Origin: a virus
Strand: one strand, 5' to 3'
DNA length: 64,000 nucleotides
Virus record (IMG/VR): IMGVR_UViG_3300020045_010174
Location: 678-64,677 of that record
Of the stretch, positions 17,736 to 43,547 are shown one piece after another. Each line of letters starts with the position of its first letter. Positions within the stretch are counted from its first letter, which is position 1. The position numbers and the translations under genes are program-made. The notes below the pieces were generated by a model, which saw nothing but the letters and a program-made list of their open reading frames with translations, searched no databases and was not told where the DNA came from.

Positions 17736-17827
17736 GCTTCGGTAATCTAATGGCGAGGTGCTAGTCTAGGTAGGAGTGGGTGGCCTATCGGAAACCTGTT
17801 AAGTGAGTTCGATTCTCACCCGGAGCA
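17736..17827 (+). tRNA. tRNA gene (~92 nt; long variable arm or intron; isotype undetermined)
   Basis: Acceptor 'gcttcgg' / 'ccggagc' (one U-G), D-arm 'atct-aatggcg-aggt', T-arm 'gtgag-ttcgatt-ctcac', discriminator a. Confidence 0.55.
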
Positions 17828-17868
17828 TTTGCCAGATTCGGCAATAGTATTTCAGAGGTGAAATAAAT

Positions 17869-19423: not shown

Positions 19424-19437
19424 CATCAGAGGTGACC

Positions 19438-20628: not shown

Positions 20629-20985
20629 ATGAAAGCGTTGGTAGTAATGGTAGCATTGATAGGTATATTGTTTTGGAATCTACCCGCTACCAACTCATCA
20701 TTTAAAGGACAGCATTCCTTCTACACCGAAGTAGATTGTACCAAGTGTCACTTAGAACAAACCAATTATCTAACCCATACATCAACACTCAACCATACAA
20801 TGACCTGTAAGATATGTCACCCGCAAGATAGAATGTCATCTCACTCAGCAAGGAGAGGATCATGTTATGTTTGTCACTATACTATTCCTTCTGTTGTTCC
20901 TTCTACTGTGCTTGTGGATGCGGGGGTCACCGAAACTCTTACAGTTAATAGCGACCCAATACAAATTCAAACCAGCCCAACTTGA
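20629..20985 (+). CDS. small triheme c-type cytochrome, paralog of the 17869 N-terminus
   Basis: 'LPATNSSFKGQHSF' parallels 'LPATMSLFAGQHSF'. Heme motifs CTKCH, CKICH, CYVCH. Confidence 0.7.
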   Translation: MKALVVMVALIGILFWNLPATNSSFKGQHSFYTEVDCTKCHLEQTNYLTHTSTLNHTMTCKICHPQDRMSSHSARRGSCYVCHYTIPSVVPSTVLVDAGVTETLTVNSDPIQIQTSPT

Positions 20986-21025
20986 AAAGGATACTCGCAA
21001 AGAGGATTGGATCATCTTAATAATA

Positions 21026-21505
21026 ATGATCACCCTCATTATAATACTGGGTGTTAAACTAATAACACTGCAGGTTATAGTATCCGATAGTATGAAGCCC
21101 GAATTCCAACGTGGTGATATCATAGTATCCCAATCAATTGATCTCAATGTTTCAGTTGGGGACATCATCACATTCAATACAATCAGTAGTCAATACGCAG
21201 TCACACATAGAGTTATAGAAATCAGAGATGATAGAATCATAACCCGCGGTGATGCTAATCCCTGGAACGATGACTACTACACCACAAACAAAGATGTAAT
21301 ATTCAAAGCTATAAATCTTTCCGGCCCCATCGTAATTAAAAACCTCGGTGGATTCTTCATAACAGATTACAGTAAGCAGGGAATGATTTATAAGTTTGGA
21401 GACCAGTACACCTTCATGCAAAATCTATCAGCCACAATTAAAGTGTGGGGTAGATTGATTACATTAATAGCAATAGTAATATACATTCTTTCTATGAAGA
21501 GGTGA
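21026..21505 (+). CDS. signal peptidase I, ER/archaeal (Sec11-like) type
   Basis: Box B 'SDSMKPEFQRGDIIV', box C 'GDIITF', box D with His 'THRVIE', box E 'GDANPWNDD'. The six-frame ORF begins at 20867 but would overlap the cytochrome by 118 nt, so the internal ATG at 21026 is preferred. Confidence 0.65.
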   Translation: MITLIIILGVKLITLQVIVSDSMKPEFQRGDIIVSQSIDLNVSVGDIITFNTISSQYAVTHRVIEIRDDRIITRGDANPWNDDYYTTNKDVIFKAINLSGPIVIKNLGGFFITDYSKQGMIYKFGDQYTFMQNLSATIKVWGRLITLIAIVIYILSMKR

Positions 21506-22816: not shown

Positions 22817-22899
22817 GCGAGTATTGCTGAGTGGTCAAAGGCGCGAGACTCAAGATCTCGTCTAGTAGTAGTTCAGGAGTTCGAATCTCCTTACTCGCA
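22817..22899 (+). tRNA. tRNA-Leu(CAA), type II with long variable arm
   Basis: Acceptor 'gcgagta' / 'tactcgc', D-arm 'gct-gagtggtcaaa-ggc', anticodon arm 'cgaga-ctCAAga-tctcg', variable 'tctagtagtagttc', T-arm 'aggag-ttcgaat-ctcct', discriminator a. Confidence 0.65.
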
Positions 22900-23138: not shown

Positions 23139-23354
23139 ATGGTTCTAGTTGGTCAGATCTGGATGAGAAATCCAAAGATGAAAAATTACTGGGGAGATGA
23201 CGCTGGTAAATTAGTTGTCGTTACTACTCTAACTAATAGCACAGTATATTATAGATATGTGGATTATGAATCCTATGATGAGTTTGTTCACTTCCAGGGG
23301 GCTAGAGAATTAGATGCCTTCATAAAAAGATTCGTATTATATAAAGATGTGTGA
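23139..23354 (+). CDS. tandem mini-gene family member A2
   Basis: 'MVLVGQIWMRNPKMKNYWGDDAGKLVVV...YYRYV...FVLYKDV'. Confidence 0.6.
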   Translation: MVLVGQIWMRNPKMKNYWGDDAGKLVVVTTLTNSTVYYRYVDYESYDEFVHFQGARELDAFIKRFVLYKDV

Positions 23355-23578
23355 GGTATCATATGATTGAACCCGGTCAGATTTGGATGAGAGATCCAGA
23401 GATGAAAATTTATTGGGGAGATGCGGCTGGTAAATTGGTTATCATTATTTCTATACTCGATGACAATATAAGGTATAGATATATATCTTGGTATAATGAT
23501 GAGTCAGATCACCACCACGTGGGGGAGTACAGTAGATTTTCTTTTTTAAGAAAATTTAAATTATATAAAGATGTATGA
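23351..23578 (+). CDS. tandem mini-gene family member A3
   Basis: 'MIEPGQIWMRDPEMKIYWGDAAGKLVII...RYRYI...FKLYKDV'; ATGA overlap with A2. Confidence 0.6.
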   Translation: MRYHMIEPGQIWMRDPEMKIYWGDAAGKLVIIISILDDNIRYRYISWYNDESDHHHVGEYSRFSFLRKFKLYKDV

Positions 23579-23590
23579 GGTGATAATCAT

Positions 23591-23806
23591 ATGGTTAAAG
23601 CAGGGCAGATCTGGGTAAGAGATCCCACGATGGCATATTACTGGGGGGAGGATGTTGGAAAATTAGTCATCATTACCAGTGTATCAACTCATGAGATTAA
23701 TTATAGATATGTTGAACATTCTTGGGAGGATGGATTCAAACATTATATTGGATGCAGACCATTCGATAATTTTCAAAATAGATTTAAATTATATAAAGAT
23801 ATATAA
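23591..23806 (+). CDS. tandem mini-gene family member A4
   Basis: 'MVKAGQIWVRDPTMAYYWGEDVGKLVII...NYRYV...FKLYKDI'. Confidence 0.6.
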   Translation: MVKAGQIWVRDPTMAYYWGEDVGKLVIITSVSTHEINYRYVEHSWEDGFKHYIGCRPFDNFQNRFKLYKDI

Positions 23807-23817
23807 GGTGATATGAC

Positions 23818-24024
23818 ATGGTGAAGGTAGGTGAAGTATGGGAAAAGGTTGATCCAGTGGGGGACTATTGGCAGTATGAGGAATACCCATTAGTAATTGT
23901 TACCAAGGTGACTGAGAATTATGTAAAGTATAGATGTCATGTTACTAATATAGTAGGTCATTATAAAAATATCAGACCACTTAAAGAGTTTGAATCTATG
24001 TTTGCACTACACAAATCCATATAG
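23818..24024 (+). CDS. tandem mini-gene family member A5
   Basis: 'MVKVGEVWEKVDPVGDYWQYEEYPLVIV...KYRCH...FALHKSI'. Confidence 0.55.
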   Translation: MVKVGEVWEKVDPVGDYWQYEEYPLVIVTKVTENYVKYRCHVTNIVGHYKNIRPLKEFESMFALHKSI

Positions 24025-29424: not shown

Positions 29425-29628
29425 ATGATTAAGGTGGGGGATTTGTATAGGAAGAGTGGATCCAGATGGACAGATGATAAAGATGATATTGTAGTTATTG
29501 CAGAAGTTTCAGGTGACTGGTTAAGATATCGTTATATTACTTCGGGAGATGATTCCTATCATTCTCATAGTGGACGTTGGTCATTCGAAGGATTTAATAG
29601 AGAATTTACGAAGGTGACATATGATTAG
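29425..29628 (+). CDS. tandem mini-gene family member B5
   Basis: 'MIKVGDLYRK...IVVIAEV...RYRYI...FTKVTYD'. Confidence 0.6.
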   Translation: MIKVGDLYRKSGSRWTDDKDDIVVIAEVSGDWLRYRYITSGDDSYHSHSGRWSFEGFNREFTKVTYD

Positions 29629-29824
29629 GGTTGGAGATATCTATCAAAAGGTTGGGAAAGGTAGGTGGGGTGATGAAGAGAATGATTTAGTGGTCATTGT
29701 ATGGTCCACACCTTTACAAATAAGATATCGTTATATTGATAGGGCATCACATGATCATCAACTAAGTTCTAGCTGGGATCTCAAATCATTCGATAGATGG
29801 TTTAGAGGGGTGAAATGTGATTAA
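29621..29824 (+). CDS. tandem mini-gene family member B6
   Basis: 'MIRVGDIYQK...LVVIVW...RYRYI...FRGVKCD'. Confidence 0.6.
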   Translation: MIRVGDIYQKVGKGRWGDEENDLVVIVWSTPLQIRYRYIDRASHDHQLSSSWDLKSFDRWFRGVKCD

Positions 29825-30017
29825 AATTGGTAGTATCTGGGAGAGAGTATTAACACTCGACAGAAATATACACGTGGGAGATATTGCAATTGTCACGGAT
29901 ATAGTTGGTAATGATATCAAATATCGATTTATGGTACATGAAGGTAATAGACATTTAAATTTCCAAAGATCCCATGAAGAGTTTTTAAATATTTTCAGAG
30001 AGGTGAAGTATGATTGA
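29817..30017 (+). CDS. tandem mini-gene family member B7
   Basis: 'MIKIGSIWERV...IAIVTDI...KYRFM...FREVKYD'. Confidence 0.6.
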   Translation: MIKIGSIWERVLTLDRNIHVGDIAIVTDIVGNDIKYRFMVHEGNRHLNFQRSHEEFLNIFREVKYD

Positions 30018-30207
30018 ACCTGGTAGTGTATGGGAAAGATCGGTTTTTATAGGAGGAATTCCAGCAGGTAGTTTAGTTATAGTTGAGAGGGTTAATAGTA
30101 GAGAGGTTCAATATAGATTTGTAGATGCCGAAGACAACAATCATTCTTATTACAGTAGACATGTTAGCGATTTCCAGAAAAATTTTAAGGAAGTGAAACA
30201 TGTATAA
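30010..30207 (+). CDS. tandem mini-gene family member B8
   Basis: 'MIEPGSVWERS...LVIVERV...QYRFV...FKEVKHV'. Confidence 0.6.
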   Translation: MIEPGSVWERSVFIGGIPAGSLVIVERVNSREVQYRFVDAEDNNHSYYSRHVSDFQKNFKEVKHV

Positions 30208-30388
30208 AGTAGGTGATGTATTAAAACGAGTTGGACCTCTCTGGGATTCGAGATGGTTGGGTGCATTTGTAATAGTAATTTTTATTGATGAAGAATATAT
30301 GTTGTATAGATATCCTTCACATGCTATATCAAAGCATTCTTCTGGTCATGTATCCAAAGAAGACTTTGATTCATTTTCATATCCATAG
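30200..30388 (+). CDS. tandem mini-gene family member B9
   Basis: 'MYKVGDVLKRV...FVIVIFI...LYRYP'. Confidence 0.55.
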   Translation: MYKVGDVLKRVGPLWDSRWLGAFVIVIFIDEEYMLYRYPSHAISKHSSGHVSKEDFDSFSYP

Positions 30389-30398
30389 GATAATATTT

Positions 30399-30608
30399 AT
30401 GACGATTAAAGTTGGTCAAGTATGGCGCCGAGTAGGAGAAGCATGGTCTATATATTATAAAGAAAAACCCGTTGTTATTATACAGGTATCTCGTATCGGA
30501 GTTAAGTATAGATATACAGATCAACATGAACAAGAGCATGTTGATGGTGAAATATTATCATTCAGTAGATTTGAAGATATTTTTAGATTGTGGAAGGATG
30601 TGGATTGA
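30399..30608 (+). CDS. tandem mini-gene family member B10
   Basis: 'MTIKVGQVWRRV...VVIIQV...KYRYT...FRLWKDVD'; internal ATG of the six-frame ORF 30285-30608. Confidence 0.55.
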   Translation: MTIKVGQVWRRVGEAWSIYYKEKPVVIIQVSRIGVKYRYTDQHEQEHVDGEILSFSRFEDIFRLWKDVD

Positions 30609-30817
30609 TGACGGTTGAAGTTGGACAAGTATGGGTGAGATATGGAGATACCTGGCTACCAGATGATCGTGAGAATCCAGTCATTATTATAAGCGCGACT
30701 ATTCTTGGAATTGTATATAGATATTTAGATATGTATGAAGAAGAACATGCTTGTAGTAGTGAGTGGCCAATAGAACAATTTGAAGAATCTTTTAAATTAT
30801 ATAAGGATGTGAAATAA
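30608..30817 (+). CDS. tandem mini-gene family member B11
   Basis: 'MTVEVGQVWVRY...VIIISA...VYRYL...FKLYKDVK'; ATGA overlap with B10. Confidence 0.55.
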   Translation: MTVEVGQVWVRYGDTWLPDDRENPVIIISATILGIVYRYLDMYEEEHACSSEWPIEQFEESFKLYKDVK

Positions 30818-31048
30818 TGAAAGGTGAAATAAGTATGGGTCACGGAGATAGATTGGTTCTATCCAATGAAGATGGTGTCCGAATGTTAGAAATCCAGAAG
30901 ATGGGTAAATTATTTTACATCAACCCAATTCCAAATTGTGTAATGGAATCACCCAGTGAAGATTGTGGATCAACAACCATAGGTACAAGAAAGAGGAAAT
31001 CATCATGTCTGAAAAAATTCATAACTATAGAATAATTGTGGAGAGAGA

Positions 31049-31561
31049 ATGTCAAATAAAATAAAGAAAGCAGAGTCATTAGCTCGCTTTGTACATGAAG
31101 GTCAGAAGAGAGGAGACGGAGAAAATTATATTAAACATTGCGAACGAGTAGTAGACGAGACAAGAAAATATATATATAGTCATTTCGAAAGTAAAGAACA
31201 ATCGGAAAATCTTATTTGTGCAGCATGGCTTCATGATTGTATCGAGGATGCAGATCTCAAACTTGAAATGAATGACTTTATATTGAAAGCATTTGGTTAT
31301 GATATATGGGATATAGTTGCAACACTGACACATGATCCTAAACTTGAATCTTATAATCAATATATCGAGGGAGTATTCAAACACCCCACAGCATGGCAAA
31401 TCAAGTGGCTTGATATGATAGATAACACATCATACAAGACCACAAAGAAACAAATTATTAAATACAAAGATGCCTGCACACACTTAATGATTCATGGGGT
31501 TACTGTGCCCCCAATCCTAATAGAACGATTAGGACTTTCAGAATCATCAATTGATGAATAA
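31049..31561 (+). CDS. HD-domain phosphohydrolase, RelA/SpoT-type (p)ppGpp hydrolase-like (small alarmone hydrolase / Mesh1-like)
   Basis: 'ARFVHEGQKRGDGENYIKHCERV' (H...GxxRxxGxxYxxH) followed by 'AAWLHDCIEDADL' (HD...ED), the signature arrangement of the SpoT hydrolase HD domain. Confidence 0.6.
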   Translation: MSNKIKKAESLARFVHEGQKRGDGENYIKHCERVVDETRKYIYSHFESKEQSENLICAAWLHDCIEDADLKLEMNDFILKAFGYDIWDIVATLTHDPKLESYNQYIEGVFKHPTAWQIKWLDMIDNTSYKTTKKQIIKYKDACTHLMIHGVTVPPILIERLGLSESSIDE

Positions 31562-31574
31562 AAGAGGTTTAAAT

Positions 31575-32471
31575 ATGAGTAATGAAAAAATCGACAAAGG
31601 AATCTTCTTCGATATAGATTCTTATGGAGATATAACAAAAATGCACTACGAGAGGATAGTAACGACAGTGATATTAGTATTATTACTTTCGTCAATGATC
31701 TTGGGTGGAATCTATCGTATCAATACAGGTGAAGGTGCTATCCTCACCGGAGCAAGTGGAGTAAAAGAACCTATCACAAAAGTAGGATGGGGTTTAAAAG
31801 TCCCAGTATTTTCAAGCATTGAAATCAAAACTGTTGTGAATAGAAACATTTACTTCCCATCGGACTATGTTGCATTGGAAGCTAATTTTAAAAGTGATTC
31901 GCAGACCGGCGCAATAGGTATCGATATCAAAACAACGGATGATAAAGTTGTAGACACTGGCGCAGTAATGACATATTCAATCACCGATCTATATCAATAT
32001 GGTGTAATGAATGCATACCCAGAAGAACAATTACAAAAAGCATTCGATGCAGCAGTGTTTAATCATCTGCAGACACTCGATTCAAACAAGATCACCAGTG
32101 AAATTTCCACAGTAAATGCTGAATTATTAACTAAAATAAAAGCATCAAACCTGGAACAGCAGTATGGTATTGTAGTGACATCAGTCCAATTACTGAGGCC
32201 AACATTCACCAAGGAAGCACTTAGTGGATTATCACAGAAACAGGCGATCCAAGCAATAGCAGAAGGTAAACTCAATGCAGCCAAATCCGAAGCCTTAGCC
32301 ATCGAAACTATAGCAATGGCTACTAAGAATCAGGCAGATACATTGGCTGGTATTAGTGACGAGCGGTTAGCATACACTGCCAAGATGACTCTATACAATA
32401 ATCTGAAAGGCCAGACAAATGTAATATGGGTTATCCCAGACAACGTGAACTTAAATCTAGTTGCAAAGTGA
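31575..32471 (+). CDS. SPFH/band-7 (stomatin/prohibitin-like) membrane protein
   Basis: N-terminal TM 'IVTTVILVLLLSSMILGGI', then an SPFH-like core and a coiled-coil 'QAIQAIAEGKLNAAKSEALAIETIAMA'. The ATG at 31575 has an 'agagg' SD; the upstream ATG at 31551 overlaps the previous gene. Confidence 0.55.
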   Translation: MSNEKIDKGIFFDIDSYGDITKMHYERIVTTVILVLLLSSMILGGIYRINTGEGAILTGASGVKEPITKVGWGLKVPVFSSIEIKTVVNRNIYFPSDYVALEANFKSDSQTGAIGIDIKTTDDKVVDTGAVMTYSITDLYQYGVMNAYPEEQLQKAFDAAVFNHLQTLDSNKITSEISTVNAELLTKIKASNLEQQYGIVVTSVQLLRPTFTKEALSGLSQKQAIQAIAEGKLNAAKSEALAIETIAMATKNQADTLAGISDERLAYTAKMTLYNNLKGQTNVIWVIPDNVNLNLVAK

Positions 32472-32503: not shown

Positions 32504-32695
32504 ATGGAAATTGGTTCAATTGTAAAAATTAAAGATAATGCTGGGACATATGGAGAAGCACTCGGAGCAATTGGTATATGTACACGTATAGAATATATTG
32601 CAAGAATTAAAACTATTCTAATATATGTAAGGATTCCGGGTAGGTTATCACACACGGGTGTAATGTTACTTGAGACGGAGGTAGACTTAATATGA
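32504..32695 (+). CDS. small protein distantly resembling the tandem mini-gene family
   Basis: 'MEIGSIVKIKD...GAIGICTRIEYI...'. Confidence 0.35.
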   Translation: MEIGSIVKIKDNAGTYGEALGAIGICTRIEYIARIKTILIYVRIPGRLSHTGVMLLETEVDLI

Positions 32696-33585
32696 TAGAT
32701 ACAACTATAGGTAGCGATCCAGAATTCATGATTATAGATTCTAATGGGGAAATATTACCAGCAGTTAAAATTTTATCGGGATGTGATGATTGCAATCCTT
32801 GTGATACATGTAGTAAAACACGCGACGAGGATGCGTGTGTTCGTGGATGTGGTGGGGATTGTGATGTATGTCATATGTGTAGCAGTGAACCAGGAAATTG
32901 CGATTCATGCTATGAATGTCAGGAACCTCTGGAACATTCGGAAGTTGGTATAGATGGGAACAGTACAGTTGGAGAACTTCGACCGATTTATTCATTTGAT
33001 CCTATAATGCATCATGCAGCCATCAAATCATTGATTCGACATATTAATCTTCCAAAAGAATATAAATTATTGGGAGGTACAGTACAATGTGGATTTAAAC
33101 TGGGAGGACATATTCATATAGGTTATAATGAATCTGGTATTGATAATGATCATTTCGCAAAATATCTTTCATACTATTGTGGGATACCCCTCAAGAGAAT
33201 AGAGAATCCAGACGATATTGAATGTCGTGGTAAATACGAGGAGACATATGGATACTACGGTTCTTATCATGATACTGATTATGGTATAGAATTTAGAATG
33301 CCTGCATCATGGTTAGTTGATTCTACCATTGCAAAAGCAGCATTGTGTTTAGCTAAGGTGGTAGCATATGAATATCTCAATGTGGATTCATCAGCTGATG
33401 TTGACTTATCTCATGATGAGTATGTGGAATTACTTGATGCTAGAAACATAGATGATATCATAGAAGAAATAAAAGATATGGAAGAATTTTCTAAATATGC
33501 TAATGAAATAAATCCCCTGCTTACAATGATTGAGAATCATCAAACATGGGATACAGATAAAAACATACGGGAGAACTGGAAATGA
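32692..33585 (+). CDS. Amidoligase_2-family (glutamine-synthetase-like) amidoligase paralog 1, with Cys-rich N-terminal insert
   Basis: 'IGSDPEFMII' N-terminal motif and 'LGGHIHIGY' / 'YGIEFRMPASW' core, shared with the ORFs at 39834 and 42237. A 60-aa insert carries ~16 Cys ('CDDCNPCDTCSK...CGGDCDVCHMCSSEPGNCDSCYECQEP'). Confidence 0.6.
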   Translation: MIDTTIGSDPEFMIIDSNGEILPAVKILSGCDDCNPCDTCSKTRDEDACVRGCGGDCDVCHMCSSEPGNCDSCYECQEPLEHSEVGIDGNSTVGELRPIYSFDPIMHHAAIKSLIRHINLPKEYKLLGGTVQCGFKLGGHIHIGYNESGIDNDHFAKYLSYYCGIPLKRIENPDDIECRGKYEETYGYYGSYHDTDYGIEFRMPASWLVDSTIAKAALCLAKVVAYEYLNVDSSADVDLSHDEYVELLDARNIDDIIEEIKDMEEFSKYANEINPLLTMIENHQTWDTDKNIRENWK

Positions 33586-33893
33586 AACTAAAAAAATTTA
33601 TATTGTATCTGATGGAATGGTTGACCCCCTCCTGTACCGCAGCATACATTGTCTTAACAGATAAGATACAGTGGGGGACATATATGTTTTGGGGATATGC
33701 GGTTAACATCCCCTCATATATCTTGGCATCACTCGCGGGTGCAGCTATCTTTTATTATCTGAATAAATATATATTTAAATCAGATGTAAAAGAAGTAATA
33801 GTAACAGTTGATGGCTCTACTTATACCATGCGTGATGGTGATAATATTAGAGCAGTTAATAATATAGTAATCGTAAAACATAAGGAGGTATAA
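33582..33893 (+). CDS. small TM hypothetical protein
   Basis: Two hydrophobic helices. Confidence 0.4.
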   Translation: MKLKKFILYLMEWLTPSCTAAYIVLTDKIQWGTYMFWGYAVNIPSYILASLAGAAIFYYLNKYIFKSDVKEVIVTVDGSTYTMRDGDNIRAVNNIVIVKHKEV

Positions 33894-34041
33894 GATGGAA
33901 AATTTTATTGAAATTGCACCCCTAACACCGTTTATAGAGCGAGAGGTTTTTGAAGATACAAGACATGTGTTTGCAAAACCCCGGGAAATATTTGCACAAA
34001 CAGATACGACAACAATCACTAAACCAACATGAGGTGAATAC

Positions 34042-34410
34042 ATGACCAAAAAACAAAAAGAAAGGACGTGGAAAAATCCAGAAGAACCTCCACACAACGT
34101 TTATTATTTTATTGATCATCTTGATCCCCAGAAGAGATTGAGAGTGTGGGGAGGACAACACATGAATGATGTAATTGAGTCATTGAAGCCCTCAAATTAT
34201 TTAACCGAGTTTGTTCGGTTCATGAAAGGCTGCGACAGCCTTAGCCGATGTTATCCACTCCATGAAGAATTGGGTCATGTTGACGAGATTCGACTTGAAT
34301 TTTGGTCACGATATCAAACAAAAGTTAAGACAGTAATAAAACCAATGATCAAAAGAATGATAAAGGACGAGATAAAGAAGGATTTGGAGAGGATGAAATT
34401 TTATGAGTGA
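34042..34410 (+). CDS. hypothetical protein (122 aa)
   Basis: ORF with 'gaggtga' SD. Confidence 0.45.
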   Translation: MTKKQKERTWKNPEEPPHNVYYFIDHLDPQKRLRVWGGQHMNDVIESLKPSNYLTEFVRFMKGCDSLSRCYPLHEELGHVDEIRLEFWSRYQTKVKTVIKPMIKRMIKDEIKKDLERMKFYE

Positions 34411-34828
34411 TGAAGTTTTTACTCAAATAATTTTTCCTCCACTCCCCAAAGTAATTTATAATCAAACGCCTTTGGCAAACCAACGGTTTGATATCAATAA
34501 CAAACCAATGAAGTCAGAAATTCCAACGTACAACGTTCCACCAGATAAACCATATTGGTTTGAATTTTATCCCGACAGATCGGATTTTATGTGTAAGTGT
34601 CCTGCATGTAATTTGGTATATTGTTATAGTTCAATGCGACCCGATACGGATCCTGATGCATTGATGAAGACAGTCCTTGCTTTAAAATCGTATTATAATC
34701 AGGAATTTGAATGGTTCTGCCCCAATAAAAAAGATCATGAAGTAATATCATTCAATGATCGAAGGAAGGCGAACGAAGGATACGAGGAATATTCCGAAGA
34801 ATACTGGTCGGAGTTCATGATGAGGTAA
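34403..34828 (+). CDS. 'FTQIIFPP'-tagged Zn-ribbon protein 1 (candidate substrate / precursor of the ligase locus)
   Basis: 'MSDEVFTQIIFPPLPK...' then a variable body with 'CKCPACNLVYCY...FCPNKKDH'. Confidence 0.55.
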   Translation: MSDEVFTQIIFPPLPKVIYNQTPLANQRFDINNKPMKSEIPTYNVPPDKPYWFEFYPDRSDFMCKCPACNLVYCYSSMRPDTDPDALMKTVLALKSYYNQEFEWFCPNKKDHEVISFNDRRKANEGYEEYSEEYWSEFMMR

Positions 34829-34830
34829 GT

Positions 34831-35124
34831 ATGGATAATGTATTTACTCAGATAATATTCCCACCCAAACCAAGACAAGAACTCGTTATAAAATCAAGCG
34901 GTGATAAAGATATAGATTATTGGGTTGTTGCAGAAGAATCGCATAAGGCATTATATGTTCAATGTCCCATCTGCTATACTTCGTTTAGATTGGCAATGGT
35001 TATGAATGAGGCAGCATTGAAAGAATATATAAATAGATATCCTGATATGTATTACAATGCGGCAATCAGAGAATGCCCGGAAAAAGATAAGCATGGACAA
35101 CAAGTCTGGCACACGGTGATATGA
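34831..35124 (+). CDS. 'FTQIIFPP'-tagged Zn-ribbon protein 2
   Basis: 'MDNVFTQIIFPPKPRQ...QCPICYTSF...ECPEKDKH'. Confidence 0.55.
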   Translation: MDNVFTQIIFPPKPRQELVIKSSGDKDIDYWVVAEESHKALYVQCPICYTSFRLAMVMNEAALKEYINRYPDMYYNAAIRECPEKDKHGQQVWHTVI

Positions 35125-35125
35125 A

Positions 35126-35443
35126 ATGGAAACTTTTACTCAGATAATATTTCCACAGAAGAAAAAAGATACTCCATTACTAATGAAACCCGCGGGATCT
35201 ACAGATGGAAAACAATTCATATTTTGGTTTAAGGATGTATTGGATTATAATACTAAGGAAGAAGAATCATTCGTTATGGTAAAATGTCCAGAATGTAATT
35301 TTATCTACGAGTTTATTAAAATAGATCCCAGACAAAAAGAATTGATAAATGAAAATCTCCACACAAATCTATCCTACTATAAAATACGTGCAATAAGCGG
35401 TTGCCCAAGATGTAAAGGAAATTATAATTCGGGGTATGCATGA
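35126..35443 (+). CDS. 'FTQIIFPP'-tagged Zn-ribbon protein 3
   Basis: 'METFTQIIFPQKKKD...KCPECNFIY...GCPRCKG'. Confidence 0.55.
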   Translation: METFTQIIFPQKKKDTPLLMKPAGSTDGKQFIFWFKDVLDYNTKEEESFVMVKCPECNFIYEFIKIDPRQKELINENLHTNLSYYKIRAISGCPRCKGNYNSGYA

Positions 35444-35690
35444 TCATTCAAATCCTGGAAGAGTCAGATCGTTTTCTTGTTCAGGAAATGGAAGATATGG
35501 AATTTCATCTTTTAGAAGAAATAAAATATTCCGATTTAATAACATATCAAAAGTGGCTTAAAGAGCAACTTGAGTTGATAGATAAAATATTTAAATAGGA
35601 GGAATTGTTATTTGGGAAGAATTTATAGGGAAAAGAATATATGTAAAAAGATTTGATACAGATGATACTTACGAGAATCTCAGTATAGAA

Positions 35691-36041
35691 ATGATGACAG
35701 TATTGGAAATAATACCAATCATAAGAAATACTTTGGCAAAAATACTTACGAAAAATAATCTTATCAATTGTATATATCCTTCGGCATACGAGGTTTTAAG
35801 TTCGGAATCTCTTACTGAATCCACGGATGATTGGAATCAATATGTGGGGAAACGTATTTTAGTTTCACAACATGATAGAGAGGAAGATAGAACGTTGGGG
35901 TATCCTATACAAGAGTATCTTGTTGTGGCAACGAAAGGAAAGTATGTCATGTTATATGATGTAAATACCCGTGATGAAGTTTATGGGCATCAGGTAATAT
36001 GGAGAGATACAAACGATTATGATGTATTGGGTACGTTGTGA
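35691..36041 (+). CDS. hypothetical protein
   Basis: ORF; 4-nt gap/overlap to the next. Confidence 0.4.
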   Translation: MMTVLEIIPIIRNTLAKILTKNNLINCIYPSAYEVLSSESLTESTDDWNQYVGKRILVSQHDREEDRTLGYPIQEYLVVATKGKYVMLYDVNTRDEVYGHQVIWRDTNDYDVLGTL

Positions 36042-36440
36042 ATGGTAAATACATATAAAATATTATTCAAGAAGAATGGTATTCGGGTTACTCCCAGTAG
36101 ATTGCGGGGAGCCGATGCTCGCATATTCCAATTACATCTTAAAAGGTTGAGTAAAGGATTTGAAGATAACCACACCGATGTATTGGATAATATAGCTTTA
36201 TTAGTTGCTATAGATGGAGAAGAGCATTATCGAAAAAGAGACAATTTAAAAAAGAAAGAGATATTAACAATAGATGATATGATCATCGACTACGAGCTAA
36301 ATAATATAACTCATATATTAGTCGATGGCATACTCACTAAAGACAAAAATACTCTGCTGGATAATATCTATGTATTAGAATTGTTTAGTGAGAGTATGTA
36401 TCAATCTCCTCAACTCGATGCAAAACTAAGAAAGAGGTGA
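36042..36440 (+). CDS. hypothetical protein
   Basis: ORF. Confidence 0.4.
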   Translation: MVNTYKILFKKNGIRVTPSRLRGADARIFQLHLKRLSKGFEDNHTDVLDNIALLVAIDGEEHYRKRDNLKKKEILTIDDMIIDYELNNITHILVDGILTKDKNTLLDNIYVLELFSESMYQSPQLDAKLRKR

Positions 36441-36526
36441 TATAATGACAGAAGAAGAAGAAAAAGAAGTGAAGGTATTTGTACCCCACGACACTCGGAT
36501 GTTGATATATGATCCCGAATTAACGG

Positions 36527-36892
36527 GTGATACATATGTTTGAAAAAGGAGACGTGGTTAAATATATTGGTGATAGCCAGCGATGGAAAAATAAAGAATT
36601 TACAATAGTAAATGATCCCGTTCAACGTGATCGTAGTGTACTTCATTGTATACGAAATAATATGACATATTTTAGGATATTTACTACAGATCAAGTGGAG
36701 AAAGTAGAATCAATTCCTAAATTTCAAACGGGAACTATTGTTGATGTTAAAACTTTAATTTACAATGATCCAAATAGAATTGGTATTATTAAATTATCAA
36801 ATCATTTGGGATCAATTGTTAGATATCCACTCGGTGGATTCGCTCATAGAGAAGATTATATTCCAAATAGTAGGCTGAGGTTATCAAAATAA
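36527..36892 (+). CDS. tandem-duplicated SH3/KOW-like small-barrel protein (two G-x-V-V/I-x-V repeats)
   Basis: 'FEKGDVVKYIGDS...' and 'FQTGTIVDVKTLIYND...' internal repeat. Confidence 0.35.
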   Translation: MIHMFEKGDVVKYIGDSQRWKNKEFTIVNDPVQRDRSVLHCIRNNMTYFRIFTTDQVEKVESIPKFQTGTIVDVKTLIYNDPNRIGIIKLSNHLGSIVRYPLGGFAHREDYIPNSRLRLSK

Positions 36893-37282
36893 TGGAAATA
36901 AATGTAAAGGATGTTATAGAAACAGTTTCATTATCGAATGGATTTATATTATTTCAAAATGATACTGGATACTATCTGGGAATAGTGTGTGAAAATACGG
37001 GTATCGCAGCCGTTCATGCGATCGATAAAAGAACATATGAGTGTGTAAAAAGACGAGAAGGCAAGAAACAATGATGGATACATTACTTCTATATGCAAAT
37101 TATCAGTATACTATAAAGGTTACTGATGTCCTTGTAGATATGTATGTGAATAATTATCCGCATATAAGTGGATATGGTATATCGGTTATGCTCCCCGATC
37201 ATCATACCAAGAGAGCGGGAATAGCAAAAGGATTATTATCCGATATTCCAAATCATGGAGCTATTATAACAGAGGTAGAATA

Positions 37283-37570
37283 ATGACATTGGATGACTTG
37301 GTATTAGAAATATATACCGATATGAAAAAAGCATTTGCTGATGGTAATGCATTAGTATATGCTAATAAATTGGCGCAAAAAATAATGATAGTAGAAGGTT
37401 CAAGGGAAACAGTAAGTAGAGCAGAAACAACTAGACCAGTGATCTCTCAACCCAGGCCAGTACAACCTGCCGTGGAAGTGAGAGAAGAACTGCGTGAAGT
37501 TCCTAGACCTCCGGCGAGAACAAATACAGCAACTGAGCAAAGAGATAACGTGAGAGTATCACGGGGTTAA
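37283..37570 (+). CDS. hypothetical protein with Pro/Arg-rich tail
   Basis: ORF immediately upstream of the ATP-grasp. Confidence 0.4.
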   Translation: MTLDDLVLEIYTDMKKAFADGNALVYANKLAQKIMIVEGSRETVSRAETTRPVISQPRPVQPAVEVREELREVPRPPARTNTATEQRDNVRVSRG

Positions 37571-37580
37571 GAGGTAGAAT

Positions 37581-38312
37581 ATGCCAGATTTTATATTATA
37601 TCATGAAAATAGTTTAGATACGGGAAAAGCTTTACAGAGAGCACTTGGAATCGAAGGTGGAGAACATATGCCAGATAGGAGATATGATCATCTTATCAGA
37701 TGGGGGAACCGAGAAAAAATCCACTATGCATCACCAAAGACACTTAACAAATCATCGGCGATGGATAATGCATCTAACAAAACAAGAGCGATCGAAGTCA
37801 TGCAGGCGAATGGAATTTCCCATGCACCAATAAAAACAAGGTTCGATGGAGTTCTTCTTCTTGCAAGAAAGTCATCTCATATGCACGGTTCGGGATGTTA
37901 TTTCGTGACATCACAGTATGACTTTGATAATGCCAGAAGAATCGGATGCACATCATTTACCGAGTTTATTCCAACCAAGCGTGAATTCAGAGTTCATGTG
38001 ATCAATGGAGAAGCTGTATTCATATTTGAGAGAGTATGTCCCAGCGAACCAGAGAGTCTCAACATAAGGAATGAGTGGAATGAAGAGAGAAGAACAGTAA
38101 ATGAAGTTCCTTCAACAGTTATTGCAGAAGCAATTAGGGTTGTTGAAGTCATGGGTTTACATTTCGGTGCGGTGGATATCGGGTTCAGTATGAATGATCG
38201 GCCATATGTGTATGAAGTCAATACAGCACCTGGTCTTGTGAATGATGATACCCATATGAAACCATCGTTCGCTGTATATAAGAATGCATTCGCTGCATGG
38301 TTAAGAACATAA
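37581..38312 (+). CDS. RimK-like ATP-grasp ligase (alpha-L-glutamate/peptide ligase family)
   Basis: C-terminal 'GLHFGAVDIGFSMNDRPYVYEVNTAPGL' matches the RimK/ATP-grasp 'G.D.AGVD.......V.EVN.SPG' signature; 'FRVHVINGEAV' is a central beta-strand motif. Confidence 0.7.
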   Translation: MPDFILYHENSLDTGKALQRALGIEGGEHMPDRRYDHLIRWGNREKIHYASPKTLNKSSAMDNASNKTRAIEVMQANGISHAPIKTRFDGVLLLARKSSHMHGSGCYFVTSQYDFDNARRIGCTSFTEFIPTKREFRVHVINGEAVFIFERVCPSEPESLNIRNEWNEERRTVNEVPSTVIAEAIRVVEVMGLHFGAVDIGFSMNDRPYVYEVNTAPGLVNDDTHMKPSFAVYKNAFAAWLRT

Positions 38313-38323
38313 GTTTGAGTATT

Positions 38324-38560
38324 ATGACAGATACATTTACTCAAATAATTTTTCCACCAAAAATAAAACCAATCGAACCCAAGCAATCTAATATAGTTAA
38401 TACGTTAGCAAGTATCTATGAAAATTCTAGTCGTAAATATACCCCCCTACAAGTTTATTGTAGTGAGAAGAGGGGGATGGTTTTACTAATAGGTTGTCTT
38501 AGATGTGAGAAAAGAACTGTTCCACTTGAATCGATATTCACAGTAATGATGGGGTGTTAA
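38324..38560 (+). CDS. 'FTQIIFPP'-tagged small Cys protein 4
   Basis: 'MTDTFTQIIFPPKIKPIEP...YCSEKRG...GCLRCEKR...MMGC'; internal ATG of the six-frame ORF 38297-38560. Confidence 0.5.
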   Translation: MTDTFTQIIFPPKIKPIEPKQSNIVNTLASIYENSSRKYTPLQVYCSEKRGMVLLIGCLRCEKRTVPLESIFTVMMGC

Positions 38561-38561
38561 T

Positions 38562-39071
38562 ATGTCTTTACTTATGATGCATATAAGTACCACGCAAACT
38601 GCATTAGAAACATTATTGCACGTATTTCATTCCCAAATGAATGGTGGATATAAAAATCTATCATTGAGTATTAAACATGTGGATGGCACTAATCAATGGG
38701 TTCGAGGAAATCTTGATACAGTATTTGGAAGTGATATAATATTAGATATGGAATATCATGATCTTGTCATACTTGAACATTACAATGATAGAAGTGCCAC
38801 CTCTACAACGTGGCTCAATGGGAACACGACACTGGCTACGTTGATCGATATGTACAGTGATCAAGAATACTGCATCATGGCAACTCTTGCGTCGGGTGGA
38901 CCGCATGCATATTTCATATTTAAAAATGAACCGATGTCGAGATATAAATTGTTGGGCAATGAAGTTATTTCTTTCTTTGTCCCGAACGGTGCAACACAGG
39001 TATCGATTATGAATAACATCAGCGGAAAATTAACATGTGATAGAGGTCTATCGCATATGATGAAATTATGA
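38562..39071 (+). CDS. hypothetical protein (169 aa) inside the ligase locus
   Basis: ORF; no recognisable motif. Confidence 0.4.
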   Translation: MSLLMMHISTTQTALETLLHVFHSQMNGGYKNLSLSIKHVDGTNQWVRGNLDTVFGSDIILDMEYHDLVILEHYNDRSATSTTWLNGNTTLATLIDMYSDQEYCIMATLASGGPHAYFIFKNEPMSRYKLLGNEVISFFVPNGATQVSIMNNISGKLTCDRGLSHMMKL

Positions 39072-39074
39072 GAG

Positions 39075-39815
39075 GTGAGTATTATTTGCAGATTAGCATT
39101 TATTACAAGTAATAATATAGACAGAAGAATCTTAAATGAACTATTCATCGCCCTGGAGAAATCTATGGGCGGTGATGGAAATGGTATTGGTGGATTTATT
39201 GGAGGACATCCTCTCGTATCTAAATCAACGAAAGCAACGGCAGATAAATTTGTATCTGATATGCAATGGGATAACAACAGATATATATTCCATACCAGAC
39301 GAGCGTCAGTAGGTAGTATTGATGATGATAATTGTCACCCCTTTATATGGGGAAATACAATCACAATGCATAACGGACATATTGATGGAGCCGGAGTTCT
39401 GAAGCTTATGATGCTTGAGAATCTTGATCAGTATGAAGATGATGGGTGGACACTTGAAAAGTTAAGTAATTCCACAGACAGTAATATAATGGCATATTTT
39501 ATCTGGAAGCGAGGATTTGAGATAGTGTCATTATTGTCGTGTGGAACAGTAGTAACTATGTATCCGCATCAGACATTACTGCATGCTGGCAATGCTTTGG
39601 AAGCCATCAGAGTTAATGGTGAATGGATCTTCGCATCCGAATTTCCCGACACTATGGGTATGGCATCAGATCAGTGGCTGGTATTTGAAAAAGGTACCGA
39701 GATAACAGTAAAGAACACAGATGAATATATTATCACCAAAGGATGTTGTTTTGATGGTAAGAAAATTTATCTATTAAAAAAAGAGAGCGAAAGAAAAAAT
39801 AAGAAAAGAAAATAA
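39075..39815 (+). CDS. class-II glutamine amidotransferase-like (Ntn-hydrolase fold) protein 1
   Basis: 'MHNGHIDGAG' (HNG motif) and 'FHTRRASVGS' with an N-proximal Cys ('..SIICRLAFI'). The annotated start is GTG; an in-frame ATT directly before the Cys would make it N-terminal. Confidence 0.45.
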   Translation: MSIICRLAFITSNNIDRRILNELFIALEKSMGGDGNGIGGFIGGHPLVSKSTKATADKFVSDMQWDNNRYIFHTRRASVGSIDDDNCHPFIWGNTITMHNGHIDGAGVLKLMMLENLDQYEDDGWTLEKLSNSTDSNIMAYFIWKRGFEIVSLLSCGTVVTMYPHQTLLHAGNALEAIRVNGEWIFASEFPDTMGMASDQWLVFEKGTEITVKNTDEYIITKGCCFDGKKIYLLKKESERKNKKRK

Positions 39816-39833
39816 AATTATGGAGGTAGCAAT

Positions 39834-41486
39834 ATGAAAGGTAAAATAAAAGGAAATATCCCAACGTCAAATGTTGAATGTCTTTCTCAGAGAGAAAGTA
39901 TGCAGAGTTATATAGGCACTTTTGGTAAATATTTTTCCAGAGTTGGTAACTGGTTAAATAATATTGATGCATCTAGTGCAAGAGATACCGCACTTATATA
40001 CACAAAGGTAAATAAGATGTCAGCATGTGCTTCATGCACCAATGAAACATGTCTTCAAATTCCCGATAAGTGGAAATTTGGTCCAGAGTCCCCGATATGG
40101 GAGCATAGCTTCTTGAATCAAAAAACTCCCGAATTCATGAGAGTAGAATCATCTGTATTTGAGAGAAGACTTTGTGATAAATCCATCATGATAACACTTC
40201 AAACAAATACATATGATAGAGTTATCGCAGAGTTTTGTCCATCCAAAAAAGTATTATTAACAACCGACTGGACCCACGATGAAACAACGATGGAATTTGT
40301 AAGAGAGGTGTTGGATATGATGGCAGATATGGGATTACTTTCAACCCGTTCAAATAAACCCATCAAGCCTAATATCACACTCGGTGCAGATCCAGAATTA
40401 GAATTTGTGGATCAAGATACGAAGATGGTATTACATTGTGGTGATGCTGGAATTCAGGATAGAATTCCAATGAGTCCAGGTTCAAGTACAGGTAGAATCG
40501 GAAAAGATGGATCCGCAGCACAGAGAGAAATAAGACCAGAACCATCCCCCACACCAGAGGGTCTTGTCGAAAATATAGACAAACTCATTGGTGCTGCATT
40601 AGATGAGCAGTGGTCATTGAAGGGAGAAAAATATTCCCTCGGTGGACATATACATATTGGAGGAATAACAGAGTCAAGGGACTTTATTAAGTTGCTTGAT
40701 TATTACCTTGCACCTCTCTCAATATTGAATTCTTCAATGAGATCGGGTTCTTCGTATGGAAAATCCGGCGACTATAGAAAGCAGCCATATGGTCTTGAAT
40801 ATAGAGTTCCACCGGCTGGATGGTTAGCATCCAGAAGATTAGCAACAATTACATTAAAGATAGTTAAGCTTGTTGCTGAGAAACATTATACTGGGGAAGA
40901 TATAGAACTTACAGATGACCTCAATCGTGACCTAACAACACTTGGATTAACTATGGAAGAAGTAGTAACATTCTTCACAGAAATAAAATCTTTCCAGGAA
41001 AATGGTCTTCCAGATAATCTACAGAAAGCATGGGGATATAAAAATCCAATAAAGTTTTCTCTAGAATTTAGAGATGGGTGGAACGAAGATGTTAAAAAAT
41101 ACATCAACGGTCTTGTAATCGAGATGGCTAAAAAGGAAGAATTGGGTGGACGTGTGGTTCTATATGGGCTTGATGCATCGAGGGGAAATGTTTTCTCATT
41201 GGTCATGGCTCATATGAATGGAATAGATATGCCGGAGAACTATGGGTTTATGCCGCCACTAAAACAAGGTGCAGGTATAAATCATGTTGGTATACCATCA
41301 TCCATTAGAAGTAGTCTACCGGAGGCTAAACATATGGCAGAGGTTGTTCTTGAGGTAATCAGAAGAACTATCAACCCGCCCAAACCAAAGAAAAATAAAA
41401 AATCCAAACATGAGGAAGAAGAGGCAGTGGAAGTCGATATACCTACCGGATGGACATACACACAAACCTTATCCAGGAGATCATAA
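39834..41486 (+). CDS. Amidoligase_2-family amidoligase paralog 2 (N-terminal ~190-aa extra domain)
   Basis: 'LGADPELEFV', 'YSLGGHIHIGG', 'YGLEYRVPPAGW'. Confidence 0.6.
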   Translation: MKGKIKGNIPTSNVECLSQRESMQSYIGTFGKYFSRVGNWLNNIDASSARDTALIYTKVNKMSACASCTNETCLQIPDKWKFGPESPIWEHSFLNQKTPEFMRVESSVFERRLCDKSIMITLQTNTYDRVIAEFCPSKKVLLTTDWTHDETTMEFVREVLDMMADMGLLSTRSNKPIKPNITLGADPELEFVDQDTKMVLHCGDAGIQDRIPMSPGSSTGRIGKDGSAAQREIRPEPSPTPEGLVENIDKLIGAALDEQWSLKGEKYSLGGHIHIGGITESRDFIKLLDYYLAPLSILNSSMRSGSSYGKSGDYRKQPYGLEYRVPPAGWLASRRLATITLKIVKLVAEKHYTGEDIELTDDLNRDLTTLGLTMEEVVTFFTEIKSFQENGLPDNLQKAWGYKNPIKFSLEFRDGWNEDVKKYINGLVIEMAKKEELGGRVVLYGLDASRGNVFSLVMAHMNGIDMPENYGFMPPLKQGAGINHVGIPSSIRSSLPEAKHMAEVVLEVIRRTINPPKPKKNKKSKHEEEEAVEVDIPTGWTYTQTLSRRS

Positions 41487-42226
41487 TGTGTGGGATTTCT
41501 GGTATCATCCCACTTTCAAATGATGTAAGTAAAGAAACCACGTTAGAAGTAACGAAATTTCTTTTATTAGAAAATGAAAGTAGGGGAAGAGATGCCACAG
41601 GAATAGCAACGATGAATATTGCAGATAAGAAAGTTTTAATCTGCAAGCAAGCCGAAACAGCGAAGGAATTTATTACTCACCTCACAACGGAACATATCTG
41701 GGGGCCAGTAATATGTCATAATAGAGCAAAGACGAGAGGTGAACCAGAAGATCCAGAGAATAATCATCCTATGTTTGGACCAAAATTTTGTATGGTTCAT
41801 AACGGAATGGTTCATTCTATGAAAGAATTACCGGAATATAAACTGAAAGGTAAGTGTGATACTGAGGTTCTTCTATCATATTTTGAAGTAAAGGGTATAA
41901 AGCAAGCTATCCCCGAAATTGATGGTAGTGCAGCAGTAGCAATATTTAGCCCCCTCGATCGTATGTTTTATCTTTATAGACATACAAGCCCGTTATCGAT
42001 AGCATACTTCCCGGGTAAGGCAATCGTATTTTCAAGTTTGGATTCCCCACTCAAAAAAGTAGGAGCCATGCTCGGTGTAGAAAAGACACTAGGTCTTTTT
42101 AACAATTACCACCTTGTGGATGTGGAGGAGGGACAGTTAATAACAATGGATCTATCGACAAACAATATATCCCTCGATATGATAAAAATTGAATACAAGG
42201 CAGGCAATTGGTGTAATGTAAAATAG
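41486..42226 (+). CDS. class-II (Ntn) glutamine amidotransferase domain protein 2
   Basis: Begins 'MCGISGII' (catalytic N-terminal Cys). 'RGRDATGIA' and 'VHNGMVHS' motifs follow. Its ATG overlaps the stop of 39834-41486. Confidence 0.65.
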   Translation: MCGISGIIPLSNDVSKETTLEVTKFLLLENESRGRDATGIATMNIADKKVLICKQAETAKEFITHLTTEHIWGPVICHNRAKTRGEPEDPENNHPMFGPKFCMVHNGMVHSMKELPEYKLKGKCDTEVLLSYFEVKGIKQAIPEIDGSAAVAIFSPLDRMFYLYRHTSPLSIAYFPGKAIVFSSLDSPLKKVGAMLGVEKTLGLFNNYHLVDVEEGQLITMDLSTNNISLDMIKIEYKAGNWCNVK

Positions 42227-42236
42227 AGGTGATAGT

Positions 42237-43547
42237 ATGAAAAAAGTTATAAGAAGAAATGAACTTCTTGTAAAAAATGCTGCATCTGATGAATGTATCG
42301 ATGAGTATATAGATATACTCAAACCATACTTCAACAAAATCACGCATCATTATACTACAAATCACAATCTAAATCACGATTGTATTTTAGTATACTCGTA
42401 TTTCCCCAATGAAATATGTTGTGATAATTGTAGGCAAAAACCAATCACAATAAATATTTCTCAGTTGGATTCATCTATTCCTATCAAAAAGGGATTTGGT
42501 GACAATAGATTCCGAGATGAGCCGTGCTCGAGACTTTTACGTATTCGATATGGTTCATTAACTTTTGGATATTATTGTGTTAGAAACAATATGATGTTGG
42601 CAGCAGACTTTGCACATGTGGATGGAAATCAACCTCATCTAAAGGTCATACTTGAAACTTTATATGATACGGATATTCTCATACACATGGAAGATAAAAG
42701 AGGACAATGCGAAATCACTCTCGGAACAGATCCAGAAATGGAAGCTATGGTGGATGGAAAAATTATTGCGGGTAATTGTTTGCCAAGTATTCGTAGCAAC
42801 GATAAGGCATATATATCTCATGATGGTGCAAGAAATCAACGGGAACTTAGACCAGATCCATCGAAATCACCAGAAGAATTAGTTGAAAATATTCGAGACC
42901 TAATCCGCATATCTTCCTTCTTCGGCGAAGAACTGATTATTGCGGGGAATAATTATTCCCTTGGTGGACATATACACATTGGGGGAGCTTATCCAAGCGC
43001 TGAAATTATAGAAGTGTTGGATTACTTCTTATATCCATTAAACGCATTATCTGGTAAAATAAGAAAAGATAGTCAGTATGGGAAAATGGGTGATTTTAGA
43101 TATCAGCCGCATGGTTTTGAATATCGTACCCCTCCCGCCGCATGGCTATTAACACCGGAATTGGCCTTAAAAACTCTACAGCTTACAAAAGTTTCGATAG
43201 AAACTCTGTTAAATACTGGAGAAGTTATTGTCTCGGAGGAAAATACCTGGTCTAATTATTTAGAAGATCTTCGTCAATTTCCTATATGTACCGAGGAATG
43301 GATCGAAAAATATAAGAATGAATTCAAATGGGCATCCGATAATTTAAATAAACCTCTCAGTGAAACTTGGGGTGTAGATATTCCAAAAGAATTCCGAGCC
43401 CAGAAAAAATACCAATATAGTCCTGATGTCGAAGTATCACGTGTTAATCCAGTGAGGGTAGTTCAATTATGTTCGGATGATGAAGATGAAAATGGTGTAG
43501 AACCTTTAATAAATACTGTCTCATCTCCAGATGTGGATGCATTATGA
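42237..43547 (+). CDS. Amidoligase_2-family amidoligase paralog 3 (N-terminal ~160-aa extra domain)
   Basis: 'LGTDPEMEAMV', 'YSLGGHIHIGG', 'HGFEYRTPPAAW'. Confidence 0.6.
   Translation: MKKVIRRNELLVKNAASDECIDEYIDILKPYFNKITHHYTTNHNLNHDCILVYSYFPNEICCDNCRQKPITINISQLDSSIPIKKGFGDNRFRDEPCSRLLRIRYGSLTFGYYCVRNNMMLAADFAHVDGNQPHLKVILETLYDTDILIHMEDKRGQCEITLGTDPEMEAMVDGKIIAGNCLPSIRSNDKAYISHDGARNQRELRPDPSKSPEELVENIRDLIRISSFFGEELIIAGNNYSLGGHIHIGGAYPSAEIIEVLDYFLYPLNALSGKIRKDSQYGKMGDFRYQPHGFEYRTPPAAWLLTPELALKTLQLTKVSIETLLNTGEVIVSEENTWSNYLEDLRQFPICTEEWIEKYKNEFKWASDNLNKPLSETWGVDIPKEFRAQKKYQYSPDVEVSRVNPVRVVQLCSDDEDENGVEPLINTVSSPDVDAL

Follow-up and report, generated by a model that had tools for sequence, protein, structure and literature searches.

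A divergent, probable small alarmone hydrolase of the RelA/SpoT family in a metagenomic virus

Viral DNA of 64,000 nucleotides from IMG/VR virus record IMGVR_UViG_3300020045_010174 (positions 678 to 64,677 of that record; here called the window) encodes, on its + strand at 31049..31561, a protein of 170 amino acids that is very probably a small alarmone hydrolase (SAH) of the RelA/SpoT-homologue (RSH) family with an intact active site. Considered as a whole, the evidence is best explained by a stand-alone SAH of the RSH superfamily that probably acts as a 3'-pyrophosphohydrolase and may counter either alarmone-driven shutdown or toxic small alarmone synthetases (toxSAS). Virus-encoded SAHs are already known, and have been tested, in phages, and the present protein is a new, divergent member. 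It adds one divergent clade (approximately 15 clusters at 50% identity, from metagenomes only) to a well-populated class of virus-encoded SAHs that is chiefly of use as a source of candidate counter-defence or host-takeover genes.

Family assignment, active site and predicted fold

The open reading frame (ORF) encoding the SAH runs from an ATG at 31049 to a TAA at 31559-31561, giving 170 codons plus the stop, and stands exactly where the first-pass annotation of this DNA had placed a SpoT/Mesh1-like hydrolase. That assignment is upheld by comparison with RelA/SpoT HD profiles. For example, the protein matches the RelA/SpoT-type HD domain of Pfam (HD_4, PF13328) above the gathering score (28.9 versus 27.2 bits, E=1.1e-6) and gives local matches to TIGR00691 spoT_relA (2e-9) and SpoT in NCBIfam, while among PHROG families it matches PHROG 990, 'metal-dependent phosphohydrolase' (E=1.5e-29). 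Compared singly with PDB sequences, it retrieved Drosophila Mesh1 (6e-5), the Bacteroides (p)ppApp hydrolase Aph1 (9e-5) and also RelSeq. A search of 5.8 billion proteins returned 18 matches, all metagenomic, comprising the window protein itself and 17 relatives at 51-72% identity to it, with a precomputed PF13328 match in 11 of the 18. The profile of these 18 sequences matched 19 PDB sequences at E<0.01, every one an RSH hydrolase domain; Aph1 (7smg) was the best match (4e-12), and the others included Mesh1, M. tuberculosis Rel, RelSeq, A. baumannii SpoT, B. subtilis Rel, RelH and a Leptospira SAH. Run exhaustively against 1.84 billion cluster representatives, the same profile gave 17,390 matches at E<=1e-3 and only 15 at E<=1e-30; the tight clade is a small group within a very large superfamily. 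The protein has one domain only, as its 170 residues contain no further Pfam domain, its model is a single helical domain, and synthetase, TGS and ACT domains are absent.

The RSH catalytic set (the His, HD and distal Asp, the ED pair, and the substrate Arg and Asn) is complete in the protein. Both motifs cited in the first-pass annotation (H..GxxRxxGxxYxxH and HDxxED) can be read directly in the ORF, and a third family-typical motif that it did not name is also present. The first, H16-E-G18-Q19-K-R21-G-D-G24-E-N-Y27-I-K-H30 (31094..31138, + strand), contains the substrate-binding Arg and the first metal-ligand His, and aligns to 'HFYQVRKSGEPYIVH' of RelSeq and 'HRQQRRKD..YVNH' of Mesh1, with R21 corresponding to the Arg of RelSeq 'QVR44KSG'. 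The second, H62-D63-C-I-E66-D67 (31232..31249, + strand), combines the HD metal ligands with the ED catalytic pair and aligns to the 'LHDxxEDT' of Rel, Mesh1, Aph1 and the SAH of phage SSU5. The third, D122-M-I-D125-N126 (31412..31426, + strand), supplies the last metal-ligand Asp and the ribose-contacting Asn, N126, and aligns to 'ADKLDN' in Mesh1, 'HDLEDN' in Aph1 and 'ADRLHN' in Rel. Alignment to Rel, Mesh1 and Aph1 assigns H30, H62, D63 and D122 as metal ligands and E66-D67 as the catalytic ED pair. In addition, K138-Y139 (31460..31465, + strand), within an invariant Q135-x-x-K-Y, matches Aph1 K133-Y134, of which Y134 has been assigned to pyrophosphate contact (PMC10083569). Its register relative to N126 (+12/+13) is that of the KY of a wider set of related small HD proteins (the 'shell'), likewise aligned to Aph1 K133-Y134. 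R21, Y27, H30, H62, D63, E66, D67, D122 and N126 are invariant in all 17 relatives, as are Q19, T94, Y102 and the Q135-x-x-K138-Y139 motif.

An AlphaFold2 model built from the 18-sequence alignment is all-helical (pLDDT 93, pTM 0.88), and in fold comparison this predicted structure is closer to solved SAH, Rel and SpoT hydrolase domains than to other HD families; after a gap, these were followed by YpgQ at 9.9 and by deoxynucleoside triphosphate (dNTP) triphosphohydrolases (8.6 or below), exopolyphosphatases and HD-GYP proteins, all at 8.8 or below. Foldseek searches of predicted viral structures retrieved phage and giant-virus proteins labelled (p)ppGpp synthetase/hydrolase. These comparisons bear on the possibility, raised in the first-pass annotation as the outcome that would overturn its assignment, that the gene encodes a generic HD phosphohydrolase (a YfbR-like 5'-deoxynucleotidase, a dNTP triphosphohydrolase or similar), which would alter nucleotide pools to serve the synthesis of viral DNA. 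The protein does match the generic HD model of Pfam weakly (18.5 bits, under its cut-off), phage homologues carry the database label 'metal-dependent phosphohydrolase', and the window contains other nucleotide-metabolism genes, namely NrdD, a dCMP deaminase and a weak MazG-like ORF. However, the profiles and the fold both point to RSH hydrolases, and the nearest relatives in sequence or structure are not YfbR or SAMHD1/Dgt-like families. A generic HD enzyme is thus largely refuted in this analysis and is scarcely credible as an explanation.

Predicted substrates and putative role during infection

As a Mn2+-dependent HD enzyme, the viral SAH would remove the 3'-pyrophosphate from (p)ppGpp and (p)ppApp, both the metal dependence and the chemistry being taken from homologues, and 3'-pyrophosphorylated tRNA may be a further substrate, in which case the reaction would amount to repair. 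The (p)ppApp specificity of Aph1 (Bacteroides caccae prophage, PDB 7SMG) has been attributed to a signature of six residues, D24, R96, D116, R119, K133 and Y134, and a D24R/R119A double mutant acquires ppGpp hydrolysis (PMC10083569). When Aph1 residues 6-144 were recovered from the alignments for position mapping, two of the six were found to be kept in the viral SAH (K133-Y134, as K138-Y139) and four to be missing: D24 corresponds to R21, R96 to G108 and D116 to S128, while R119 falls in a four-residue Aph1 insertion that has no counterpart in the viral protein. The Arg at the D24 position, which is the Arg of the Rel/Mesh1 type, occurs in 17 of 17 relatives and in 116 of the 135 members of the wider set, and the G108 position is R or K in 12 of 17 relatives. 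Because an Arg at the D24 position and the lack of an R119 equivalent are also the state of the broadened Aph1 mutant, the viral SAH is predicted, by reference to this 30%-identical enzyme, to have a broad substrate range that takes in both (p)ppGpp and (p)ppApp, unlike the Aph-type specialists. The natural 'Arg for Asp24, no Arg119' state offers a ready test of the Aph1 specificity rule. The viral SAH further differs from Aph1 in its length, which is greater by approximately 20 residues, and has a variable insertion spanning residues 37-55.

In a Bacteroides prophage, Aph1 gives protection from Apk2, a MuF-fused toxin, and the viral SAH might similarly be a (p)ppApp-specific immunity partner for a virus-borne toxin that synthesises (p)ppApp. 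Two of the six signature positions are indeed shared, but the D24 position is Arg in 17 of 17 relatives and the overall pattern resembles the D24R/R119A mutant. Moreover, no partner toxin was found for the viral SAH. Pfam and/or PHROG scans of 62 window ORFs, including the portal and its neighbours, detected no RelA_SpoT synthetase (a weak test, as approximately 10 kb of the source contig fall beyond the window), and a synthetase motif scan of all 225 window ORFs of at least 60 amino acids gave one irrelevant match, in the DNA polymerase. As no RSH synthetase was found in the window, an Aph1-like toxin-immunity arrangement is not supported, and we consider it improbable.

The stand-alone SAH would be translated as part of a long + strand operon that also includes the flanking mini-genes and SPFH gene, and during infection the products of host RSH synthetases would be erased. 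As a result, a stringent-type shutdown may be held off, or toxSAS enzymes belonging to abortive-infection defence may be neutralised. This physiological role is drawn by analogy with tested phage SAHs and is an evenly balanced proposition. The SAHs of SSU5 (PaSpo) and PVP-SE1 (PbcSpo) neutralise all five toxSAS toxins against which they were tested (PMC7229694), and SSU5 PaSpo is in routine use to detoxify CapRel during expression (PMC9712102). Similarly, the SAHs MESH1 and ATfaRel cleave off the pyrophosphate with which toxSAS enzymes modify the CCA end of tRNA (bioRxiv 10.1101/2021.04.30.441581).

Like PaSpo and PbcSpo, the viral SAH is a single-domain RSH hydrolase of a tailed virus with no adjacent synthetase. 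PaSpo (SSU5_099, from a Salmonella phage) matches the present family hidden Markov model (HMM) at 47 bits (E 2e-16), and the two proteins have in common GQKR..GEDYINH, LHDxxED and IKxxDxxDNTS. The likeness to SSU5 is nevertheless at motif level only, SSU5 being absent among the tblastn matches at 1e-5, and SSU5_099 differs in having 213 residues with a C-terminal extension and in lacking a Q-x-x-K-Y in the same register. PVP-SE1 gp023 was considered as the SAH of that phage and rejected, as it has no match to the family HMM. Identity to Mesh1/MESH1, PaSAH (6Z3N) and the Rel/SpoT hydrolase domains is 18-25%; unlike Rel and SpoT, the viral SAH has no synthetase or regulatory domains, and the K-Y motif was not found in Rel, which has A-R-K-A there. 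More broadly, a tblastn search with a representative of the surrounding protein set identified a homologue in 681 of 50,697 deposited phage records, which include Pakpunaviruses, rV5/PVP-SE1-like phages, T4-like Aeromonas phages, pneumococcal prophages and SSU5.

Several points weigh against a stand-alone alarmone hydrolase that counters host shutdown or toxSAS. The HD_4 score barely exceeds its cut-off, the chemistry of the protein and its close family is predicted from homology, and the specificity prediction draws on two positions from mutagenesis of an enzyme with 30% identity. Nor is any RSH synthetase or toxSAS known from the host. If that host is archaeal, the classical substrates might be absent, as (p)ppGpp synthetases are rare in archaea (PMC3153485). 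Finally, a passage in 10.1101/2021.04.30.441581 cites Mesh1 as also being an NADPH phosphatase, so the fold can have other physiological substrates.

Viral lineage and the possibility of an archaeal host

The window is viral, as it encodes a portal (Pfam Phage_portal), a large terminase, a family-B DNA polymerase (PolB), a D5-type primase-helicase and an RNA ligase, together with NrdD, a Cas4-like nuclease, a dCMP deaminase and two tRNA genes. Megablast of the 16 kb around the SAH against INPHARED (50,697 phage records) found no nucleotide-level relative, and the portal and the XPF nuclease had no tblastn match among deposited phages. Three syntenic metagenomic contigs were identified, here called L012 (89.7 kb, with an accession prefix, JBINNZ, that a landfill-metagenome paper cites, PMC12607003), L042 (40.9 kb) and L043 (14.3 kb). 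In all three, an SAH at 52-63% identity (tblastn) follows a run of small genes (approximately 55-73 amino acids) and lies upstream of a COOH-NH2 ligase gene; the small genes were shown to be homologous to the window mini-genes in L012 and L043, and in the same two contigs the ligase is followed by a homologue of the window ATP-grasp gene (77-79% identity). Direct adjacency of the SAH and SPFH genes is kept in L043 (62% identity) but not in L012 or L042. With its place kept in three related contigs, the SAH belongs to the conserved gene set of this viral lineage and is not a recent insertion.

Unlike the phages SSU5 and PVP-SE1, the present virus may have an archaeal host, to which several of its genes point. 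For example, PolB (48631..50943) is colinear with euryarchaeal family-B polymerases (Thermococcales/Desulfurococcus; E ~1e-36, far ahead of Pol alpha at 1e-22 and E. coli Pol II at 1e-13), and its best virus relatives are haloarchaeal tailed viruses. An ERCC4+HhH nuclease (60525..61145) has its best matches in Aeropyrum XPF and Pyrococcus Hef, and the terminase (2807..4384) in ANMV-1, a virus attributed to ANME-1 archaea (41% identity). The window resembles ANME-1 head-tailed viruses (PMC9894754) in its short structural arm and long enzymatic arm, in its PolB, NrdD and glutamine amidotransferase-like genes and in a contig of at least 74 kb; with ANMV-1 itself, the terminase alone is held in common. 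Five of the nine best genome matches of the SAH are archaeal (DPANN and Nitrosopelagicus assemblies), and the two archaeal SAH-like matches that were examined lie in ordinary chromosomal loci. These are stand-alone HD_4 genes 35-37% identical to the viral SAH (L021 7977..8516 and L014 8004..8522), one in a Nitrosopelagicus single-amplified genome beside an XPD-like helicase and one in a Woesearchaeota metagenome-assembled genome near RPA and a GT2 glycosyltransferase.

Signals of the host's transcription and translation machinery were also sought. TBP/TFB or other strictly archaeal transcription genes are absent from the window, and a TBP gene upstream of the terminase, as in ANMV-1, was not found. 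Between 22 and 41 kb, neither sigma-70-like sites (111 versus 97+/-9) nor intrinsic terminators (11 versus 7.5+/-3) are enriched, and an intergenic k-mer search gave no convincing TATA/B-recognition element (BRE) or phage promoter motif. Shine-Dalgarno sites are strong in the window, yet do not discriminate between bacteria and archaea. Just upstream of the polymerase gene, at 48585..48618, a hairpin (GGGTGGACTT / AAGTTCGCCC) followed by TTTTTT looks like a bacterial-type intrinsic terminator and counts mildly against a purely archaeal reading.

Taken together, it is possible, though rather doubtful, that the window comes from a tailed virus infecting an anaerobic archaeon, which might be a methanogen or methanotroph with cytochromes, and that the SAH is conserved in this viral lineage. 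RSH enzymes are rare in archaea, being limited to a few SAHs and one small alarmone synthetase (SAS) in methanogens and a haloarchaeon (PMC3153485). No RSH hydrolase of an archaeal virus was found in the literature searched, where MazG is the only possible alarmone degrader discussed. If the host is archaeal, the present protein would, as far as that literature shows, give archaeal viruses their first described RSH-type alarmone hydrolase. It would then follow either that 3'-pyrophosphorylated nucleotides or tRNAs, produced by SAS or toxSAS-like enzymes that occur sporadically in archaea, are of importance in the conflict between archaea and their viruses, or that archaeal SAHs have a different, undiscovered substrate. 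Alarmone biology has hardly been explored in archaea; given an archaeal host, a virus in which an SAH is conserved would provide a handle on RSH-type products there.

An archaeal host would also make room for a role outside alarmone metabolism, in which a gene derived from archaeal chromosomal HD_4 genes encodes a Mesh1-like NADPH phosphatase or acts on another 3'-(pyro)phosphorylated nucleotide or RNA end. The archaeal or archaeal-virus affinities of PolB, the ERCC4+HhH nuclease and the terminase, the five archaeal genomes among the nine best SAH matches with two in ordinary chromosomal contexts, and the rarity of RSH synthetases in archaea (PMC3153485) are consistent with such a role. However, the window lacks TBP/TFB, and the origin of a gene does not identify the host. 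In addition, the protein retains each of the residues (Arg, Asn and Tyr) through which (p)ppGpp/(p)ppApp hydrolases contact their substrate, and some Methanosarcinales carry an SAS or SAH (PMC3153485), so alarmone-type substrates are possible in archaea. A non-alarmone role is therefore unlikely, and alarmone hydrolysis remains the preferred explanation.

Neighbouring genes and other features of the window

The SAH gene is preceded by a ribosome-binding site, GGAGAGAG (31040..31047, + strand), which was read from the sequence and has its GGAG core at 31040-31043, 5 nt upstream of the ATG; sites of the GGAGG type are likewise found ahead of many window genes. Only 13 nt separate the stop codon of an upstream 72-residue ORF (30817..31035, + strand) from the SAH ATG, and a further 13 nt separate the SAH stop from the likely start, at ATG 31575, of an SPFH/Band_7 gene (31575..32471, + strand; Pfam Band_7 E=1.2e-13). 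From this close spacing to both neighbours, the SAH is one cistron of a tightly packed + strand operon. The 72-residue ORF belongs to the same operon, has no function assigned by Pfam and is 68% identical in L043, where it occupies the same place before the SAH. An antisense ORF at 31079..31399 was dismissed as a mere shadow of the conserved sense gene.

As the first-pass annotation described, the SAH lies after a mini-gene array and before the SPFH gene and a ligase locus. The array consists of seven paralogous mini-genes of approximately 65 codons (29425..30817, + strand), reported here as context only, and a second array of three copies of similar length is found at 23351..24024. Neighbouring copies in the seven-gene array mostly overlap by 8 nt, while those in the three-copy array have short gaps, and both arrays encode a common N-terminal M-I-K-V-G and a central RYRY-like motif. 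The mini-genes, the 72-residue ORF and most of the other SAH neighbours had no Pfam or PHROG family match, which leaves the anti-defence or host-manipulation island proposed in the first-pass annotation a speculative reading. Downstream, a large amidoligase locus (32692..43547) includes COOH-NH2 ligases at 32692, 39834 and 42237, a RimK-like ATP-grasp gene at 37581 and glutamine amidotransferase-like genes at 39075 and 41450, and is conserved in L012, L042 and L043.

Elsewhere in the window, a weak MazG-like ORF (53514..53843; 17.8 bits, below the cut-off) follows the RNA ligase gene (52437..53510) and precedes a clear dCMP deaminase (53984..54403); the MazG-like ORF is a candidate second nucleotide pyrophosphohydrolase. 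Two stretches without convincing ORFs (9215..10392 and 12127..12853) contain repeated TAACGAT/ATCGT and TATAGGG words and might serve as an origin or a regulatory region or encode non-coding RNA. A normal tRNA-Leu(CAA) is encoded at 22817..22899, and two tRNA-like genes of 94 nt each, both with insertions, lie at 17384..17477 and 17735..17828. One of these has a 27-nt hairpin within the D-loop (Rfam tRNA, 40 bits) and the other, called tRNA-Thr(GGT) by ARAGORN, has a variable region that is long and unstructured; the pair might be degenerate tRNAs or tRNAs with introns. Finally, a cytochrome cluster (17869..18993, 19408..19893, 20629..20985 and 20867..21505) comprises a multihaem c-type cytochrome (Cytochrome_C7 above cut-off) and two weaker cytochrome-like ORFs below cut-off, with an adjoining S26/S24-like signal peptidase. 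Cytochrome-like genes are present in L012 too, and this unusual auxiliary gene set hints at a host that uses extracellular electron transfer.
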